Assembly (NCBI GenBank): GCA_033580375.1
Contig: GCA_033580375.1_4527.1
Reading direction: 5' to 3' (one strand)
Source of the DNA: a phage
Length of the DNA stretch: 64,000 nt
Shown here: in pieces, positions 43,957 to 50,054 of the stretch
Layout: every line of letters starts with the position of its first letter
Position numbering within the stretch: position 1 is the stretch's first letter
Made by a program: the position numbers and the translations under genes
The notes under the pieces: model-generated
What the model saw: the letters and a program-made list of their open reading frames with translations, nothing else
Told to the model about the DNA's origin: nothing
The model's database searches: none

Positions 43957-44197
43957 CTCGGTCCCATGATTTAGCCATTAATTCGGACATAAATTCTTCA
44001 ATGCGCGTTTCTTTAGATGGACTTTCACTATTAGAGACCGCAAGTTTGTAATCTGCAATAGGACGGAACAAATCAAGGTCCATATTAAGATCGTCTTTGA
44101 TTTTTTCTTCTGACACATCTTTATCATATGTGTACAGATAACTATCACATGATTCTGATTTAATGTAAATTGCTATACTCATCTCAAATTCCTGCAT
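43946..44197 (-). CDS. Hypothetical acidic protein, 83 aa
   Basis: ORF. Confidence 0.5.
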   Translation of the reverse strand: MQEFEMSIAIYIKSESCDSYLYTYDKDVSEEKIKDDLNMDLDLFRPIADYKLAVSNSESPSKETRIEEFMSELMAKSWDRDDE

Positions 44198-44670
44198 TCG
44201 GTAATAAAACGTTCAACTTCATTATTCTTGGCTTTTATCTTGTCTTTACGTTCCTGTAAACTACTTTTAACAAGATTAATAATGATGCCTATAGTACCTC
44301 CACCAATAATACCACCAATAATACTTACGATAGTAGATGCTAATAATATAGCGATAATATCTGGTATGGCAAAGGCACTTACTTTAGTACTAAAAAACCA
44401 TACCGACGGTGCAAATATAATCCATCCTGTTATCCATTGGCACTTATTGAAAAACTTTTCAAGCTCAGCTTGAGTTGTTCGTATTACTTCATCGATAGGT
44501 TGATATCCATTAATGTATCTGTTCACGATAATACCTGCTGGCTGGTCGATTTTAAATTCTTGGCAAATACGTTTCACTAAGTAGGATGGACATCCTGTCC
44601 AATCTACTGAGTAGTACGAAATACCTTCATTACCGTCGTCTATATTAGACCAATATGTTTTGTTAATCAT
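44179..44670 (-). CDS. Hypothetical membrane protein, 163 aa
   Basis: Two hydrophobic segments, Gly-rich TM (IIGGIIGGGTIGIIINL). Confidence 0.55.
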   Translation of the reverse strand: MINKTYWSNIDDGNEGISYYSVDWTGCPSYLVKRICQEFKIDQPAGIIVNRYINGYQPIDEVIRTTQAELEKFFNKCQWITGWIIFAPSVWFFSTKVSAFAIPDIIAILLASTIVSIIGGIIGGGTIGIIINLVKSSLQERKDKIKAKNNEVERFITECRNLR

Positions 44671-45356
44671 TACCAGCCTTCCATAGGGAATTCCAGATAA
44701 ACTTGGGCATTGACACGAATTTCATTGGTAATCTTTTTAACTCGGTCTGTATTACGAGATACACGTCCGAACCAACGCCATCCATTACTAATTGCACGAG
44801 AACCAGTGTGCCATGTTTGCCAATCAAACTGAAGAAGAGTACGGTCTGGAGCTTCCCATTTCTCTAGTTCACCTTTTTCAATTTTTTCGAGGACTTCTTT
44901 GTGCCATTGTCGATAGATAAGTTCGCCATCAGGAATCTGACTGAACTCTGCAGTTCCTGTTGCAAAATGAGTAGGACACACGTCAGCGTTAACAAGGCCA
45001 AGAATATGTTCAGACAAATAGCGAGGATTGTCATAATCAGGTTGTCCTGCAGTAATAAAATGTTGACCAACTGGAATATCCGGGCGTGGTACATCGTCAT
45101 GGTGATAACCTGGGATAGCAGGGTACCAACCAGGCATCAGCATGTGGACTCGTGAATCAAATACCACATCCGAGCCTTTCCAATCGTCAGGGAGATTTTG
45201 GATAAAGCTACGAGTAATTGGGCCGCCATTATCAAAAGCAAAATTCAAATCGCAGTTAAAGAACATAGGCTCGTTTTTAATCTGGTCATTTTTAATCGCA
45301 TGAGCAAAACCACCTACTGCACGAGCTTGACTATTAAACACTTTAGAACTATTCAT
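44670..45356 (-). CDS. Hypothetical protein, 228 aa
   Basis: Intact ORF. Confidence 0.6.
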   Translation of the reverse strand: MNSSKVFNSQARAVGGFAHAIKNDQIKNEPMFFNCDLNFAFDNGGPITRSFIQNLPDDWKGSDVVFDSRVHMLMPGWYPAIPGYHHDDVPRPDIPVGQHFITAGQPDYDNPRYLSEHILGLVNADVCPTHFATGTAEFSQIPDGELIYRQWHKEVLEKIEKGELEKWEAPDRTLLQFDWQTWHTGSRAISNGWRWFGRVSRNTDRVKKITNEIRVNAQVYLEFPMEGW

Positions 45357-45357
45357 A

Positions 45358-45663
45358 TTATTTTCCTCGACATTCTTTAATGAAATTTTCTAGATTGGTA
45401 GATTCAATAGCTTTTTTACGAGCTTCTGCATGTTCTTCTTCAGACAATTTACATTTATAATTAACCCAGACGTTATGGTCAAAACTAGTCGTGGCGTATA
45501 ATAACAAAGCCCCGACAAATAATAAAAATGGTGATAAGAATACAAAACCAGGAACACCATCCATATCGTAAGCCTTTTGTAATACTGCAACAGAAAGAGC
45601 TGCATAAAAAGGTGATGCAAATATTGTTAAAAGACCAATTCGGTTGGTTTCTGTTAATTTCAT
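45358..45663 (-). CDS. Hypothetical membrane protein, 101 aa
   Basis: Two TM segments. Confidence 0.55.
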   Translation of the reverse strand: MKLTETNRIGLLTIFASPFYAALSVAVLQKAYDMDGVPGFVFLSPFLLFVGALLLYATTSFDHNVWVNYKCKLSEEEHAEARKKAIESTNLENFIKECRGK

Positions 45664-45691
45664 AATATTCTCCTCATGTTTTAATAGGACT

Positions 45692-45721
45692 ACTATAACA
45701 TAGTCCTATAATTGTGTAAAC
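45692..45721 (-). promoter_or_regulatory. Early promoter in stem-loop (TAGGACTA/TAGTCCTA family)
   Basis: Repeat family member. Confidence 0.55.
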
Positions 45722-45733
45722 AGTTTTGCGAAA

Positions 45734-46690
45734 TTATTTGAAAGGTTTTACCATATGGAAATTTTGTTTGAAACGTTTGACGTAATCATCATGTCCTAAG
45801 CTTTGGTACATACTTACTACTTTGCTGTAGTTTTCCCAAGCGTATTCACGGAACCAACCGGAGGTGATGCTTGTGCAGACTTTTTCTAATGCCATCATAA
45901 AACTGGCTTCAGGGTTAATTTTAAAGTCATTAGGAATCTGAGAACGTTCTAATGCTAGTACACATGATTCTTCGTATACACCGGCCAATTTGACCATTTC
46001 TGGTAATGATTCGAACTTCTCGCGTGAGGTCATGACTTCAGAACCATCTTTCATGTAAAACGTATAAGCAGGGCGGTCTGTTAGTGCAATGGCTTCGTGA
46101 ATAGTATCATGGACATACGTATAGATGTCATCTTTAAAGAATGCGCTTTTAGAAGTGTCAAGAACTGGGTGAGCATAGTTCAAGGTTTCTTTCTGGCGTT
46201 TCAGCATAATTTCAGTAAGTTCATCGTTCAGTGTAACACCTTTACCACGAAGATACTGAATATGGTTCATAGTCTTTAAAAAGAATGGATTATTTTTCTT
46301 GAAACGATGAGACATCTTAATTGCAAGACACATCTCAGGAGTTGCCCAGTAAAACCCGTTCAAACGGTCTTTAGTCAAATTTTTCTTGGCGTATTTTAAA
46401 AGGTCATAAGAAGACGTGAAATCTTCAGGAGTGAGTTCACCGACTAATTCACGGACATTAGTGATTGCCGGAACAATATATGCTTCAAAATGAGTTTCGC
46501 GTCCATTATGGAAGCATTTGAAAACTTGGACATCAGGATTATCTTGGTGAACATATACACCCATCATTTGATTTTTGAATGCATTCCAAGAACCTTGGTC
46601 CGCAATAAAGTCCCAGTCACTATTTTTAATAGCGCTAGAATCAATAAGGCCGTGATAGTGAAGTGCACGAGAACCAATAACTAACATCAT
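45734..46690 (-). CDS. Hypothetical protein, 318 aa
   Basis: Intact ORF. Confidence 0.6.
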   Translation of the reverse strand: MMLVIGSRALHYHGLIDSSAIKNSDWDFIADQGSWNAFKNQMMGVYVHQDNPDVQVFKCFHNGRETHFEAYIVPAITNVRELVGELTPEDFTSSYDLLKYAKKNLTKDRLNGFYWATPEMCLAIKMSHRFKKNNPFFLKTMNHIQYLRGKGVTLNDELTEIMLKRQKETLNYAHPVLDTSKSAFFKDDIYTYVHDTIHEAIALTDRPAYTFYMKDGSEVMTSREKFESLPEMVKLAGVYEESCVLALERSQIPNDFKINPEASFMMALEKVCTSITSGWFREYAWENYSKVVSMYQSLGHDDYVKRFKQNFHMVKPFK

Positions 46691-46715
46691 AATAATTTCC
46701 TCGAATTTAGATTAC

Positions 46716-46967
46716 TTAAATTTCGCGACATGCGATATTATATTCATCCCAGAGGTCATCGTGTGAAGCCTCTACCAATGGAACGATTGTACCGTTTATG
46801 TCTTCATTATAAGGACAAATTGTACAGTGCGCATCTTCGAATCGTATGCCTTTGTGTTCAGATTTTTTATAACGCATATCGAATATCTTTGCAAACTTTT
46901 CACGAGTAATGGTTTTACCAACCACTTTGGTTCCGATACTTTCGTAATAAATCATTGTGGACTCCAT
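46716..46967 (-). CDS. Hypothetical protein, 83 aa
   Basis: ORF. Confidence 0.5.
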   Translation of the reverse strand: MESTMIYYESIGTKVVGKTITREKFAKIFDMRYKKSEHKGIRFEDAHCTICPYNEDINGTIVPLVEASHDDLWDEYNIACREI

Positions 46968-46983
46968 TTAATTTGATAGGACT

Positions 46984-47013
46984 ACTATAACATAGCCCTA
47001 TCTTGTTGTAAAC
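46984..47013 (-). promoter_or_regulatory. Early promoter in stem-loop (same family)
   Basis: Repeat family member. Confidence 0.5.
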
Positions 47014-47017
47014 TGTT

Positions 47018-47215
47018 TTAGCAAGAATAACTAGACGATACCCAGCCTTGAACAGTAATACTATTATTGGATAATGAGATTGCGTTCTGGAGATTCAGAC
47101 CTGCGTTATCTTCAATCCACAATGTAACTTCTTCGCGTTCTTCTGTTGCAATTTGGAACAGGTTTTCCAGAGCAGCTACTGCCGTACGTACAGCACAATC
47201 TAATTCACGAGACAT
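47018..47215 (-). CDS. Small protein, 65 aa, C-terminus ...QGWVSSSYSC (paralog 3 of 3)
   Basis: Shared C-terminal motif with the two upstream ORFs. Confidence 0.55.
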   Translation of the reverse strand: MSRELDCAVRTAVAALENLFQIATEEREEVTLWIEDNAGLNLQNAISLSNNSITVQGWVSSSYSC

Positions 47216-47224
47216 ATGGTTTCC

Positions 47225-47497
47225 TTAGCAAGTGTGAGAAGATGCAACCCAACCGCCGTCTTCAAGGCTCAGGTTGTAGTCGTATTGGTAAACGTCAGCC
47301 CATTCAGCATAACCGTTTTTTGTACAACGTTCAAGATCGGCTTTAAGATGTCCAGGTGAATGATAGGTTCCACCCATACCATAAGCTGGATACAAGTCGA
47401 ATGTTGTGTTTTGTTTATTAGCAATTTCTTTGGCTGCCTCAATAGCTGCATAGATTTTTGCTACGGCTTCAGCCAGTTCGGTTTGTTCTTTAGACAT
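47225..47497 (-). CDS. Small protein, 90 aa, C-terminus ...GGWVASSHTC (paralog 2 of 3)
   Basis: Shared C-terminal motif. Confidence 0.55.
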   Translation of the reverse strand: MSKEQTELAEAVAKIYAAIEAAKEIANKQNTTFDLYPAYGMGGTYHSPGHLKADLERCTKNGYAEWADVYQYDYNLSLEDGGWVASSHTC

Positions 47498-47506
47498 AAT
47501 GATTCC

Positions 47507-47812
47507 TTAGCACAATGCAGAAGAGGAAACCCAAGCACCTTCAGTAATAACGTAACCATTACCTTCACGCTTAACATCGCCACCATTATTTTCAATTTCA
47601 TCTTTCATCCACTGGGATACAATTTCACCCTTAGGATAATAAGTACGACCGCTACCATAATCACCTACAGAAAACGATACGGCGTATTGGTCTGCGATCT
47701 TTGTTGCTTCTTCTTCGATACGTTCAGCTTGATTCAGAAGTTTATAAATTGCATCTGAAGCGGATTTGGCATCATTAAACTCTGGTACTTTAATTTCGAT
47801 AATCTTACTCAT
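47507..47812 (-). CDS. Small protein, 101 aa, C-terminus ...GAWVSSSALC (paralog 1 of 3)
   Basis: Shared C-terminal motif. Confidence 0.55.
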   Translation of the reverse strand: MSKIIEIKVPEFNDAKSASDAIYKLLNQAERIEEEATKIADQYAVSFSVGDYGSGRTYYPKGEIVSQWMKDEIENNGGDVKREGNGYVITEGAWVSSSALC

Positions 47813-48168
47813 TTTCTACATTCCTTAATAAAGTTTTCGATTGTTTCATTTTCACGTTTAGCTAGGAGTTCATTATAACTAATCATTTGAGAAGCGTAAA
47901 CCTTTTTATTTTTCTTGTTATGGTTTATAAAATCGTAGTAAAAATAGACTACAGTACAAAATGATGCGATGGATGCAAAGGCTTGGGTATACCGTAAGTC
48001 CTGCCATTGGTCTGTGAATCCACCAGTGTTCCCTATAAATCCTAACACAACGCCGTCAATAATAAATCCAACTAATCCAAAGGCAAATCCCATGCCAATA
48101 CTCATAATAAAAATTAGAATGTTCTCGCCAAGAGAAGGCCATACGGTTAAGAGTTGAGGCTTTTGCAT
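47809..48168 (-). CDS. Hypothetical membrane protein, 119 aa
   Basis: Hydrophobic segments. Confidence 0.55.
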   Translation of the reverse strand: MQKPQLLTVWPSLGENILIFIMSIGMGFAFGLVGFIIDGVVLGFIGNTGGFTDQWQDLRYTQAFASIASFCTVVYFYYDFINHNKKNKKVYASQMISYNELLAKRENETIENFIKECRK

Positions 48169-48542
48169 CTTATTTCCTTAACGAATTCCATAGCTTCTTC
48201 ATATTCATACTTTTTAACAGCTTCATCATACTGAGCTTGGGCTTTTGCGCACTGAACTTTCCATTCTCTTAATCGGGCTCTGTGATGACGGCCTTGGTGC
48301 CAATATCCGGCCCAATTAATAGGCATTAATAAAAACGGTACAATAAGTGGTGCGACGAACATTAATGAAAACGCTGCATCAGACGATATAACTTTATTGG
48401 AATCTAAAATAGCTCCTATAATCATAAAGATTAAAAATGCTAAAGCTAAAATAGGACCAAACAACACTTCATTTGGGATTAATTTACGCTTGTATTCATA
48501 CGCCCAGGGCTTACTTGGCATGTATAGGGTTGGCTTTGACAT
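48147..48542 (-). CDS. Hypothetical membrane protein, about 131 aa (start uncertain)
   Basis: ORF track start 48572 is TTG; ATG at 48540-48542. Confidence 0.45.
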   Translation of the reverse strand: MSKPTLYMPSKPWAYEYKRKLIPNEVLFGPILALAFLIFMIIGAILDSNKVISSDAAFSLMFVAPLIVPFLLMPINWAGYWHQGRHHRARLREWKVQCAKAQAQYDEAVKKYEYEEAMEFVKEIRCKSLNS

Positions 48543-49113
48543 ATTCTCTACATTCCATAATAAATTGCTCAAGGATTAAATTGTTAGTGAAATTAGGACT
48601 AACAACCATAGTTTCATAAAGCGCATCAATAGCACTTAAAGCATCAACTCTTTTAAGCAAAGGCTTGCCTTCATACATAGTTTCAGAATCTACGATTAAC
48701 GTAAAGTAATATTTTTTATTATCGACTAGAACTTCAGTATCGATATAAAACATGTTAGACCTTAAAAGCTTATCTCTAAAACCATAATAATCTTCAGAGC
48801 GTTCGCTGATATATTCCCATTCGGTGTTTAAACAACAAACAGACCACGTAGGAGCAACGAAATCAGTGAATCTAATATCATGGTCTGCAACTAGTTTAGC
48901 AATAGCTCCGATATCATTAATCATAATACCTGGGGCTAATAAAGATTTTCTGCTATGGCTAGCCGTTTTCTCAGTAGTCTCATAAGAAGACGACCAGTAC
49001 CATTTACGTCCAGTTGCAACATATCGTAATGAATCAACTAAAGACGTAGGTGGATTTACCTTATCTCGGAACTCTTCGAACATTGAGTCAATATCATTAT
49101 TTTGGTTTCGCAT
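48511..49113 (-). CDS. Hypothetical protein, about 200 aa
   Basis: ATG 49111-49113 with AAGGAG SD (ORF track start 49134 is TTG). Confidence 0.6.
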   Translation of the reverse strand: MRNQNNDIDSMFEEFRDKVNPPTSLVDSLRYVATGRKWYWSSSYETTEKTASHSRKSLLAPGIMINDIGAIAKLVADHDIRFTDFVAPTWSVCCLNTEWEYISERSEDYYGFRDKLLRSNMFYIDTEVLVDNKKYYFTLIVDSETMYEGKPLLKRVDALSAIDALYETMVVSPNFTNNLILEQFIMECREYVKANPIHAK

Positions 49114-49162
49114 GTTAACTCCTTTATTATCCAAAAGGAGGACCGGAGTCCTCCGTATTATT

Positions 49163-49771
49163 TTATTTCAAAGAGTTAATATATTCTTGTACATCAGCAG
49201 AAGTGGTTTCGACACCAGCTGGAGCGCCATTGAACGTTTCAACACGAGTCAGAGTGTCTTCGATATCAACCTTAGTCAGTGCAGCGATTTCAATTACATC
49301 ATCAGCCGTAGAGATACCAAGGGCATTGGCTGCTCGAGTTTCACGAATGTATTCGAGTTTGATTGCCAGGTTCTGACGAGCATCGTCAAGTTCAACCACC
49401 TTACGAGCAATTTCAATTCGCATAGCGGCATACCCGTCAGCTTTTGTATTAAGTTGTTCGGCAGTTCGACGATACAGAAGACCAAGCTTAGCATGCATGG
49501 TAACATCTTGTCCTTCAGCCAGGAGCTTACGAATTTCACGTTCTTTAGAAGCGGCTTGCTTGTTCTTTTCATTAACAAGTTCTCGAATACGTTTTTCTTC
49601 GTTAATAGATTTAACAGAAGCAGTTTTTAGTTCTTTGATTTGGGTAATCAACTTATCTGCGGCTGCGTTATACTGTTCTTCGACAGTCAGATTTTTAGCC
49701 ATAGCAGTACCCAGTTTAGTGCGGATGAATTCAACAAGTTTCTTCAGTGTGTTCATATTATTACCTTTCAA
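49163..49771 (-). CDS. Hypothetical coiled-coil protein, 202 aa (composition reminiscent of PspA/IM30, unverified)
   Basis: Long heptad-rich helical sequence. Confidence 0.55.
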
Positions 49772-49797
49772 TTGGTGGTTTATTATCCAACGAGAGC

Positions 49798-49826
49798 ATT
49801 ATACTCTGCTCTCAAGAGTTTGTACA
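49798..49826 (-). promoter_or_regulatory. Early promoter in stem-loop (TGTACA-17-TATAAT inside GAGAGC/GCTCTC inverted repeat)
   Basis: Near-copy at 20028-20056. Confidence 0.5.
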
Positions 49827-50054
49827 TTATTTTTTAATCAAATTGACATAAAACTCTGCGTCTTCCGGGTGCATGCCTTCGCAGTATTCTTCAACCATGA
49901 ACTTCTTAACAGCTTCATAAGGACCACTCAGATTAAGCTCAGTTGTCCAAAACTTGGAATCTTGGGCTGAATCGATACGAACTTCAGGGTGACGGTTGCG
50001 AATAACTTCTTCGGTGTATTCATAATCAACGACATCAATACTAACTTTAGCCAT
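49827..50054 (-). CDS. Hypothetical protein, 75 aa
   Basis: ORF. Confidence 0.5.
   Translation of the reverse strand: MAKVSIDVVDYEYTEEVIRNRHPEVRIDSAQDSKFWTTELNLSGPYEAVKKFMVEEYCEGMHPEDAEFYVNLIKK

Follow-up and report, generated by a model that had tools for sequence, protein, structure and literature searches.

In a 64,000-nucleotide stretch of phage DNA (NCBI GenBank assembly GCA_033580375.1, contig GCA_033580375.1_4527.1; hereafter the window), three consecutive open reading frames (ORFs) encode small proteins that end in the same C-terminal tail, in which a tryptophan and two serines precede a terminal cysteine. These tail ORFs (47018-47812, minus strand) share their strand with a gene located downstream of them (45734-46690, minus strand) that codes for a 318-aa protein with the domains DUF7277 and DUF7275 and a nucleotidyltransferase (NTase) fold of the MenT/ANT kind. 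The combination of tail proteins and NTase is a widespread, phage-only cassette of which we found no description in the literature. Its two parts probably work together; on the best reading of the evidence the small proteins engage the enzyme through their tail, which would be either an acceptor or a pseudo-substrate. The genome has a Mosigvirus background (RB69/JS09-type relatives of T4), and the 1.5 kb around the tail array are 97% identical to many Mosigvirus phages.

Three small genes with a common C-terminal tail

Translated in all six frames, the 64-kb window contains exactly three copies of the pattern W-x-[SA]-S-S-x-x-C, each followed at once by a stop codon, and a looser version of the pattern matched 3 of the 959 stop-to-stop segments of at least 30 aa, which were the same three ORFs. 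Together with the ORF coordinates, this search confirmed exactly what an earlier note on this DNA had described, namely ORFs of 65, 90 and 101 aa with a common tail. The tail codons vary synonymously between the three copies (GTT/GTT/GTA; TCC/GCA/TCG; TCT/TCT/AGT), so conservation acts on the protein and not on the DNA. Comparisons with Mosigvirus orthologues gave ratios of synonymous to non-synonymous changes of 20:0 for the 101-aa ORF (in three comparisons), 26:7 for the 90-aa ORF and 26:6 for the 65-aa ORF, and an AAGGA Shine-Dalgarno sequence is present 7-11 nt upstream of the ATG in each of them. The three tail ORFs are protein-coding genes under purifying selection. An RNA element instead of genes was also considered and rejected, as Rfam returned no match in positions 44000-50000.

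All three ORFs are in one reading frame (47018-47815), and the gaps between them consist of TAA plus 9 nt that hold the next Shine-Dalgarno sequence, with the inter-ORF junctions reading TAAGGAATCATT-ATG and TAAGGAAACCAT-ATG. At the upstream end of the array, the start codon of the 101-aa ORF overlaps the stop codon of an e.3-like gene (ATGA). The common frame, the short gaps with their Shine-Dalgarno sequences and this overlap suggest that the array is translationally coupled.

The N-terminal regions of the three proteins had been described as unrelated-looking, which held for only one of them. The 101- and 90-aa proteins align over their full length (BLASTP E 7e-6), match a hidden Markov model (HMM) of the family built without the query (E 1.8e-26 and 7e-25, respectively), and continue to do so after removal of their last nine residues (E 1e-21 to 1e-27, again with a model built without them). 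The body of the 65-aa protein without its tail, on the other hand, scored 0.5 bits against the family HMM, where shuffled controls reached up to 6.7 bits. As judged from these comparisons, the two longer bodies are homologous, whereas the 65-aa body shares only the tail detectably. The architecture common to the two longer types starts with a long N-terminal helix ending in IAD-x-x-G-x-x-F and a strand, followed by a [D/S]YG-x-G-[R/G]-TYYP loop, a variable acidic aromatic stretch and, last, the tail. The loop reads DYGSGRTYYP in the 101-aa protein and AYGMGGTY in the 90-aa protein; the 65-aa protein has no YGxGG loop. Structural modelling, which the earlier note had proposed, gave a confident fold for the 101-aa protein (AlphaFold 2, predicted local distance difference test score, pLDDT, of 90.6) with the long N-terminal helix and a small sheet; the W-V-S of the tail is part of a beta-strand (pLDDT about 89) and not of a floppy tail. 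In the RB69 reference (NC_004928; locus L047, 2685-2991) two ORFs, ORF139c of 71 aa and ORF138c of 33 aa, take the place of the 101-aa gene, which reflects either a frameshift or a sequencing error; the gene is intact in all the other Mosigvirus copies examined.

A phage-restricted protein family

A profile search against 1.84 billion representative proteins (E <= 0.001, clusters at 50% identity), also suggested in the earlier note, recovered a family of at least 609 clusters, almost all of them of 60-175 aa and with the match reaching the last residue. A terminal Cys was found in 129 of 138 unselected new representatives. Among 186 Cys-ended members, 185 have W at -7, 185 have S at -4 and 184 have S at -3, with S, A or P at -5 and variable residues at -1 and -2; all three ORFs of the window have the Trp, both Ser and the terminal Cys at these places. 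With these residues so nearly invariant while the bodies diverge, the tail is, on this pattern of sequence conservation, the selected element. The same 186 members have a median isoelectric point (pI) of 4.4 and a median net charge of -8, and YGxG is present in 166 of them. In about half of these members the terminal Cys is the sole Cys.

After removal of the tails, most bodies chain into one diverged superfamily, with the 65-aa type and a few others standing apart. Outside the window, other long-lived tail types end in GFWFSSSMSC, DGKIWYPSSC and VDWDSSSMYC. The first two of these, as well as the three types of the window, persist across genera as orthologue groups. Some members (P0061, P0088, P0174 and P0182) contain two or three internal W-x-x-S-[SG]-C units with acidic spacers between them, and such units were also seen at L050 2893-3117 and L115 3432-3677 (examples are DWLNSSCYGE...KIWYPSSC and RWESSSEGWESSSEGWVSSSSQC). 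These internal copies imply that the motif may serve as a repeatable module and not just as a free C-terminus.

Tail proteins are encoded by T4-like phages of Escherichia, Klebsiella, Enterobacter, Serratia, Yersinia, Aeromonas and Acinetobacter and, beyond these, by Pseudomonas Otagovirus, 150-kb coliphages and jumbo phages of Erwinia, Xanthomonas and Ralstonia. When the species genomes of 185,579 bacteria and archaea were scanned for YGMGGTYY, one 1.2-kb contig of a metagenome-assembled genome was retrieved, and every other occurrence of the family is in a viral contig or a phage record. Bacterial genomes are essentially devoid of the family, which is phage-restricted. Conservation of the three ORFs in related phages, on which the earlier note had made its proposal depend, extends to hundreds of phages, and its statement that they belong to no named family was borne out as well. 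Searches of Pfam, NCBIfam and PADLOC with the three ORFs and ten canonical family members gave nothing above noise, and the only library matches of the tail ORFs were the function-unknown PHROG 899 and PHROG 4882. A literature search of incomplete coverage returned no mention of PHROG 899, DUF7275/DUF7277, RB69ORF136c-139c or the motif, and nothing relevant on a C-terminal cysteine together with a nucleotidyltransferase and phages. The tail motifs were also absent from the supplements of a phage accessory-gene screen.

Linkage of the tail proteins to one enzyme

The association between tail ORFs and the NTase-fold gene was analyzed in both directions. On the one hand, 42 IMG/VR loci were found by the small-protein pattern YGMGGTY and all of their neighbours were clustered, which revealed a homologue of the 318-aa protein (~310 aa) directly downstream in 40 of them; the two exceptions are contigs that end close by. 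On the other hand, 80 loci were fetched with the enzyme alignment and their ORFs were mechanically called. In these loci a tail protein was present upstream and on the same strand in 69 cases as detected by HMM, and an ORF with the tail pattern in 73. The pattern was found in 193 of the 1470 upstream same-strand ORFs as opposed to 1 of the 4393 other ORFs of the same loci, and that single ORF lies just downstream of the enzyme. Thus, the tail is enriched roughly 500-fold in ORFs immediately upstream of the NTase-fold gene. The arrays elsewhere hold between one and six tail ORFs, compared to three in the window, and orthologues of the 65-aa type are present in 19 of the 80 enzyme loci. The proposal in the earlier note that the tail is a shared signal is strengthened, although not proven, by its near-invariance, by its presence on the 65-aa body and by this enrichment; anchoring, which had been put forward in the same place, found no support.

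This linkage was seen in many Straboviridae genera, Otagovirus, Acinetobacter Lazarusvirus and jumbo phages, and also in GenBank isolates far from T4, such as Pseudomonas phage phiPsa267 and Acinetobacter phage Berthold. In phiPsa267 (Otagovirus), an 84-aa tail ORF ending in GWNASSQSC is followed 81 nt downstream by a 326-aa enzyme, and an 86-aa ORF further upstream ends in DWSYSSQDC.

In a 361-kb jumbo-phage contig (L133; 1456-4249 and 9192-10103), the tail ORFs and the DUF7275 gene are 4-7 kb downstream of genes for T4-type RNA ligase 1 (Rnl1) and PNKP and adjoin Metallophos and DNA ligase genes, a neighbourhood of RNA/DNA-end repair. An RNA ligase is annotated two genes upstream of the enzyme homologue in a Streptomyces phage, and tRNA clusters adjoin the homologues of Gordonia phage Miskis and of locus L068. 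Adjacency to tRNA genes was rejected as a general rule, being found within ~4 kb in only 5 of 60 loci, and is a weak hint.

The DUF7277-DUF7275 nucleotidyltransferase

The 318-aa protein has a Pol-beta-type nucleotidyltransferase fold of the MenT, ANT(2'') or LnuA kind, a likeness at the level of the fold only, and carries a conserved helical C-terminal domain besides the NTase domain. An alignment of 47 homologues keeps the catalytic signature G6-S7, D25-x-D27 and E69. A helix with K125-x-x-H128-R129 is likewise kept (at least 90% have R129), and the C-terminal domain retains H174, a helix with H194-D195-x-x-H198 and several invariant blocks of some length. As predicted from these residues, the protein is very probably an active enzyme. 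Pfam searches with the 47 homologues matched only DUF7275 and DUF7277 and gave no DUF1814/AbiEii, RlaP PF10127 or NTP_transf_2, and no PDB sequence match was obtained. The enzyme family comprises more than 2,100 clusters at 90% identity and is present in 732 phage genome records; the depositors of phage Berthold annotated its member as a 'putative nucleotidyltransferase'. A comparison of enzyme residues with the presence of tail ORFs yielded no clean pattern of co-variation: C272 is lost in the actinophage and Vibrio homologues and kept in the L089 lineage, all of which are tail-less.

What the tail may do

The tail is near-invariant, the active site of the NTase fold is intact, and the two are linked across otherwise dissimilar phage families. 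From this we infer that the tail probably engages the enzyme, and we likewise only infer their physical contact, any nucleotidyl transfer to the tail and any downstream role. NTases of this fold move nucleoside monophosphates onto hydroxyls, those of antibiotics in the case of ANT/Lnu and the tRNA 3'-OH in the case of MenT, and MNT, GlnE and GlnD transfer to the Tyr-OH of a partner protein. The invariant polar residues of the tail are just two Ser and the terminal Cys, which by analogy would be the obvious acceptors. We therefore consider it possible, as our preferred but tentative proposal, that the tail hook is a nucleotidyl acceptor for the NTase. The phage-restricted cassette has two parts, an upstream array of small acidic hook proteins and the MenT/ANT-fold NTase, and the hook W-x-[S/A/P]-S-S-x-x-Cys-COOH would be the part that the enzyme recognises. 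Trp and the residue next to it would fasten the tail to the beta-sheet of the small protein, leaving the Ser-Ser...Cys end to be offered to the catalytic cleft, where the nucleotidyl group would be taken up by the hydroxyl of Ser -4 or Ser -3, or possibly by the terminal thiol. The diversified bodies may be alternative protein substrates or cargo, with one enzyme marking all of them early in infection.

Several observations weigh against this proposal. Distant homologues of the enzyme occur without tail ORFs in Gordonia, Streptomyces and Vibrio K408 phages, as well as in one IMG/VR lineage (L089, L091 and L116) and in L068, so the enzyme must have a substrate or role that is independent of the tail. 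Its closest structural relatives act on tRNA, and the loci near RNA ligase, PNKP or tRNA genes hint at an RNA substrate; such hints are not general, because only the 5 of 60 loci mentioned above have tRNA genes close by. With W-V-S in a beta-strand, only about the last five residues would protrude. The strong acidity of the small proteins fits nucleic-acid-mimicking inhibitors equally well, and in the window a promoter-like site separates the tail array from the enzyme gene. As a separate observation, the tail-less Gordonia, Streptomyces and Vibrio K408 enzymes have another conserved small ORF of 96-121 aa immediately downstream (L129 3600-3890, L130 3630-3968, L131 3620-3985), which carries V-x-KP-[IV]-x-K-x-IT-x-Y towards its end and is possibly an alternative partner.

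The main rival to an acceptor role, which we regard as somewhat unlikely, is that the acidic small proteins are pseudo-substrate inhibitors or antitoxin-like regulators, whose Ser-Ser...Cys hook plugs the NTase site without turnover. They would restrain a potentially toxic MenT-like tRNA nucleotidyltransferase or time its activity, much as MenA1 blocks MenT1. The tail-less homologues, which imply another substrate, the RNA context of some loci (Rnl1/PNKP, RNA ligase, tRNA clusters) and the few free residues of the modelled tail all favour such a role. Yet a stoichiometric inhibitor would not be expected to come in as many as six diverged paralogues, each of them an orthologue group that spans genera, and the persistence of these types favours non-redundant roles or cargo over redundant inhibitors. 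Moreover, MenA1 inhibits through a helix and its C-terminus is dispensable, whereas the C-terminus is the invariant part of the tail proteins; these resemble neither MenA1 nor AbiEi nor any other known antitoxin in sequence or fold, and their cassette is found in virulent phages rather than in bacterial chromosomes. Both acceptor and inhibitor would have the tail contact the NTase, which is also the case if the small proteins are targeting adaptors whose tail docks on the enzyme while the variable body steers it to different tRNAs or host proteins. A conserved docking tail on variable bodies, several long-lived paralogue types and a tail-independent enzyme in other lineages agree with adaptors, but acidic bodies as tiny as these (~55-95 aa) are poor candidates for RNA binding and adaptor subunits of MenT/ANT-type NTases are, to our knowledge, without precedent, so that we consider adaptors distinctly unlikely.

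Alternatively, a host factor may read the tail, which could be a C-terminal degron, imitate a host C-terminus or attack a host metalloenzyme as a thiol-carboxylate warhead. The small proteins would then be host-takeover or anti-defence effectors, linked to the NTase only through co-regulation or a shared pathway context. This agrees with small, acidic, diversifying, multi-copy genes with early-gene-like upstream signals in the hyperplastic e.2-e.3 region, with a family confined to virulent phages of Gram-negative hosts, and with the unusual, chemically reactive end that an invariant terminal Cys provides. Co-regulation alone, however, poorly explains tight adjacency to one enzyme across phage families that are little alike, and a host factor would need to be universal, given that the hosts include Enterobacteria, Pseudomonas, Acinetobacter, Aeromonas, Ralstonia and Xanthomonas; no similarity to PADLOC or other defence-related proteins was found either, and we consider this explanation unlikely. 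We regard as improbable that Trp, the YGMGGTYYP loop, Ser-Ser and Cys form a site on the small protein itself for a metal ion or a nucleotide; such a nucleotide could be the product of the NTase or a host immune signal that the protein would soak up like a sponge. The AlphaFold model, which puts the tail inside the fold and not as a free peptide, points in this direction, as do the Gly-rich loop and aromatics conserved in most members and the extra Cys of those with two or three internal W-x-x-S-S-C repeats. Finally, the S-x-x-C-COOH end might be made into a lanthionine- or AviCys-type ring, as in ribosomally synthesized and post-translationally modified peptides (RiPPs). Epidermin has the same spacing between Ser(-3) and the terminal Cys, and apart from this spacing only the presence of several 'precursors' beside one enzyme speaks for such a cross-link. 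The neighbours examined included no LanB, LanM, LanD/HFCD-type or radical-SAM enzyme and no protease, export genes are absent, and the proteins are confidently predicted as folded domains and not leader-core peptides, all of which makes this reading very improbable.

Genomic context in the window

The tail array (Table 1) is part of a block between e.2 and e.3 that is entirely missing from T4. A homology of the tail proteins to T4 was considered and rejected, since T4 e.2 is unrelated to them. Promoter-like sites in the region are not more numerous than expected from shuffled sequences, and the tRNA genes of the window are ~4.5 kb away. Between the array and the enzyme is an 83-aa ORF, which BLASTP within the 80 enzyme loci detected immediately upstream of the enzyme in 12; it is a lineage-specific component and no universal part of the cassette. 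Its end has the same W-to-C spacing as the tail and resembles a second C-terminal motif, described below.

Table 1. Position of the cassette and of other features in the window
Feature	Position	Strand	Remarks
Tail protein type 1, 101 aa	47507-47812	-	ends GAWVSSSALC; tail codons 47510-47533; PHROG 899, E 1.3e-22
Tail protein type 2, 90 aa	47225-47497	-	ends GGWVASSHTC; tail codons 47228-47251; PHROG 899, E 2.2e-18
Tail protein type 3, 65 aa	47018-47215	-	ends QGWVSSSYSC; tail codons 47021-47044; PHROG 4882, E 1.7e-36
Promoter-like site (TTTACA, 17 nt, TATAGT, with TG)	46984-47012	-	consensus match only; between the tail array and the next two genes
83-aa ORF between tail array and enzyme	46716-46967	-	PHROG 3723; contains H-C-x-x-C; ends WDEYNIACREI
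DUF7277-DUF7275 protein, 318 aa (nucleotidyltransferase fold)	45734-46690	-	Pfam DUF7277 and DUF7275; PHROG 2141
ORF with second (ECR-type) motif	44179-44670	-	
ORF with second (ECR-type) motif	45358-45663	-	
ORF with second (ECR-type) motif	47809-48168	-	
ORF with second (ECR-type) motif	48511-49134	-	
ORF also with ECR-type motif	48147-48572	-	e.4-like membrane protein

This second motif, [EN]-[NR]-F-I-[KT]-E-C-R-(K/GK/NLR), is shared by the small membrane proteins of e.2/e.3/e.4 type that are encoded nearby. In the e.5-like ORF, FIMECREY is placed 11 residues ahead of the stop codon, and the e.4-like ORF ends in FVKEIRCKSLNS. T4 also has the ECR-type motif, in e.3 (EFVIDCRKIK), e.4 (FVKESRCKSQS) and one unannotated ORF (NNFITECRKLK). 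The annotation 'sulfurtransferase' was considered for the tail ORFs and rejected, as in two related records this label sits on the e.4-like membrane protein. In phage F27 it is carried by the orthologue of the e.4-like ORF of the window (L001 7438-7833), and it also appears within the same region of the JK45 GenBank record. The label looks spurious because the e.4-like protein has no Pfam support.

Significance

Both parts of the cassette are annotated only as hypothetical or as domains of unknown function, and its carriers include many T4-like phages used in therapy or as laboratory models. If the tail is indeed a portable eight-residue C-terminal tag (W-x-S-S-S-x-x-Cys) that is nucleotidylylated or processed by the NTase, which we propose with much reserve, it would constitute an unrecognised protein-tagging system of large virulent phages, in which one enzyme arms a whole family of diversified, host-directed small effectors. 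Such a modification site would represent a new kind of viral post-translational marking and might serve as a small enzyme-addressable protein tag. Were the small proteins inhibitors instead, the cassette would be related to toxin control of the MenAT type but carried by phages, and an action of the enzyme on tRNA would bear on how phages manipulate or repair the host translation apparatus. In any case, a reactive, invariant C-terminal tag that is genetically tied to an NTase offers a testable hypothesis for dozens of 'dark' early phage genes.

Comparison with known systems

In HEPN-MNT and in GlnE/GlnD, a Pol-beta-fold NTase attaches AMP or UMP covalently to a hydroxyl of one particular partner protein, to which it is genetically linked, and the acceptor reading of the tail follows the same logic. 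The tail proteins differ in that they have no HEPN R-x4-6-H motif and in that the candidate acceptors are Ser/Cys at the extreme C-terminus instead of Tyr; the enzyme of the cassette also has another C-terminal domain (DUF7275). Multi-precursor RiPP clusters resemble the cassette in having several diverged small products with one short invariant segment beside a single enzyme. In the tail proteins, however, these products are folded acidic domains of 60-170 aa whose conserved part is C-terminal, and the Pfam-scanned neighbours (in the window and in jumbo-phage locus L133) included no dehydratase, cyclase or LanD-type decarboxylase. The phage nucleotide sponges Tad1, Tad2 and Acb2 were compared as well, and the tail proteins have no sequence or fold similarity to a solved sponge.

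RlaP (PF10127) represents phage Pol-beta NTases that are encoded near RNA ligase and PNKP genes (PMC7824862; PMC12776372). Phage origin and, in a minority of cassette loci, an RNA-repair context (Rnl1/PNKP in the jumbo phage, the RNA ligase of the Streptomyces phage) are common to both. PF10127, however, matches 0 of the 47 homologues of the cassette enzyme, and tail-tagged partners are not mentioned in the passages of PMC7824862 and PMC12776372 that were consulted.

The closest known arrangement is MenA1-MenT1 of Mycobacterium tuberculosis, together with the wider AbiE/MenAT family. MenA1 is a 68-aa helical protein that is encoded upstream of MenT1 and blocks its active sites; inhibition takes place through a helix and the MenA1 C-terminus is dispensable (PMC10435456). 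The cassette has the same enzyme fold and gene order, and its enzyme contains the NTase catalytic core (G-S, D-x-D, a third carboxylate and a conserved Lys). Unlike those systems, it is phage-only and not chromosomal, its enzyme shows neither the DUF1814/AbiEii signature nor sequence similarity (47 homologues), and between one and six partners accompany each enzyme where MenAT has one. The partner proteins of the cassette carry an invariant C-terminal hook at the very end that MenA1 can dispense with.

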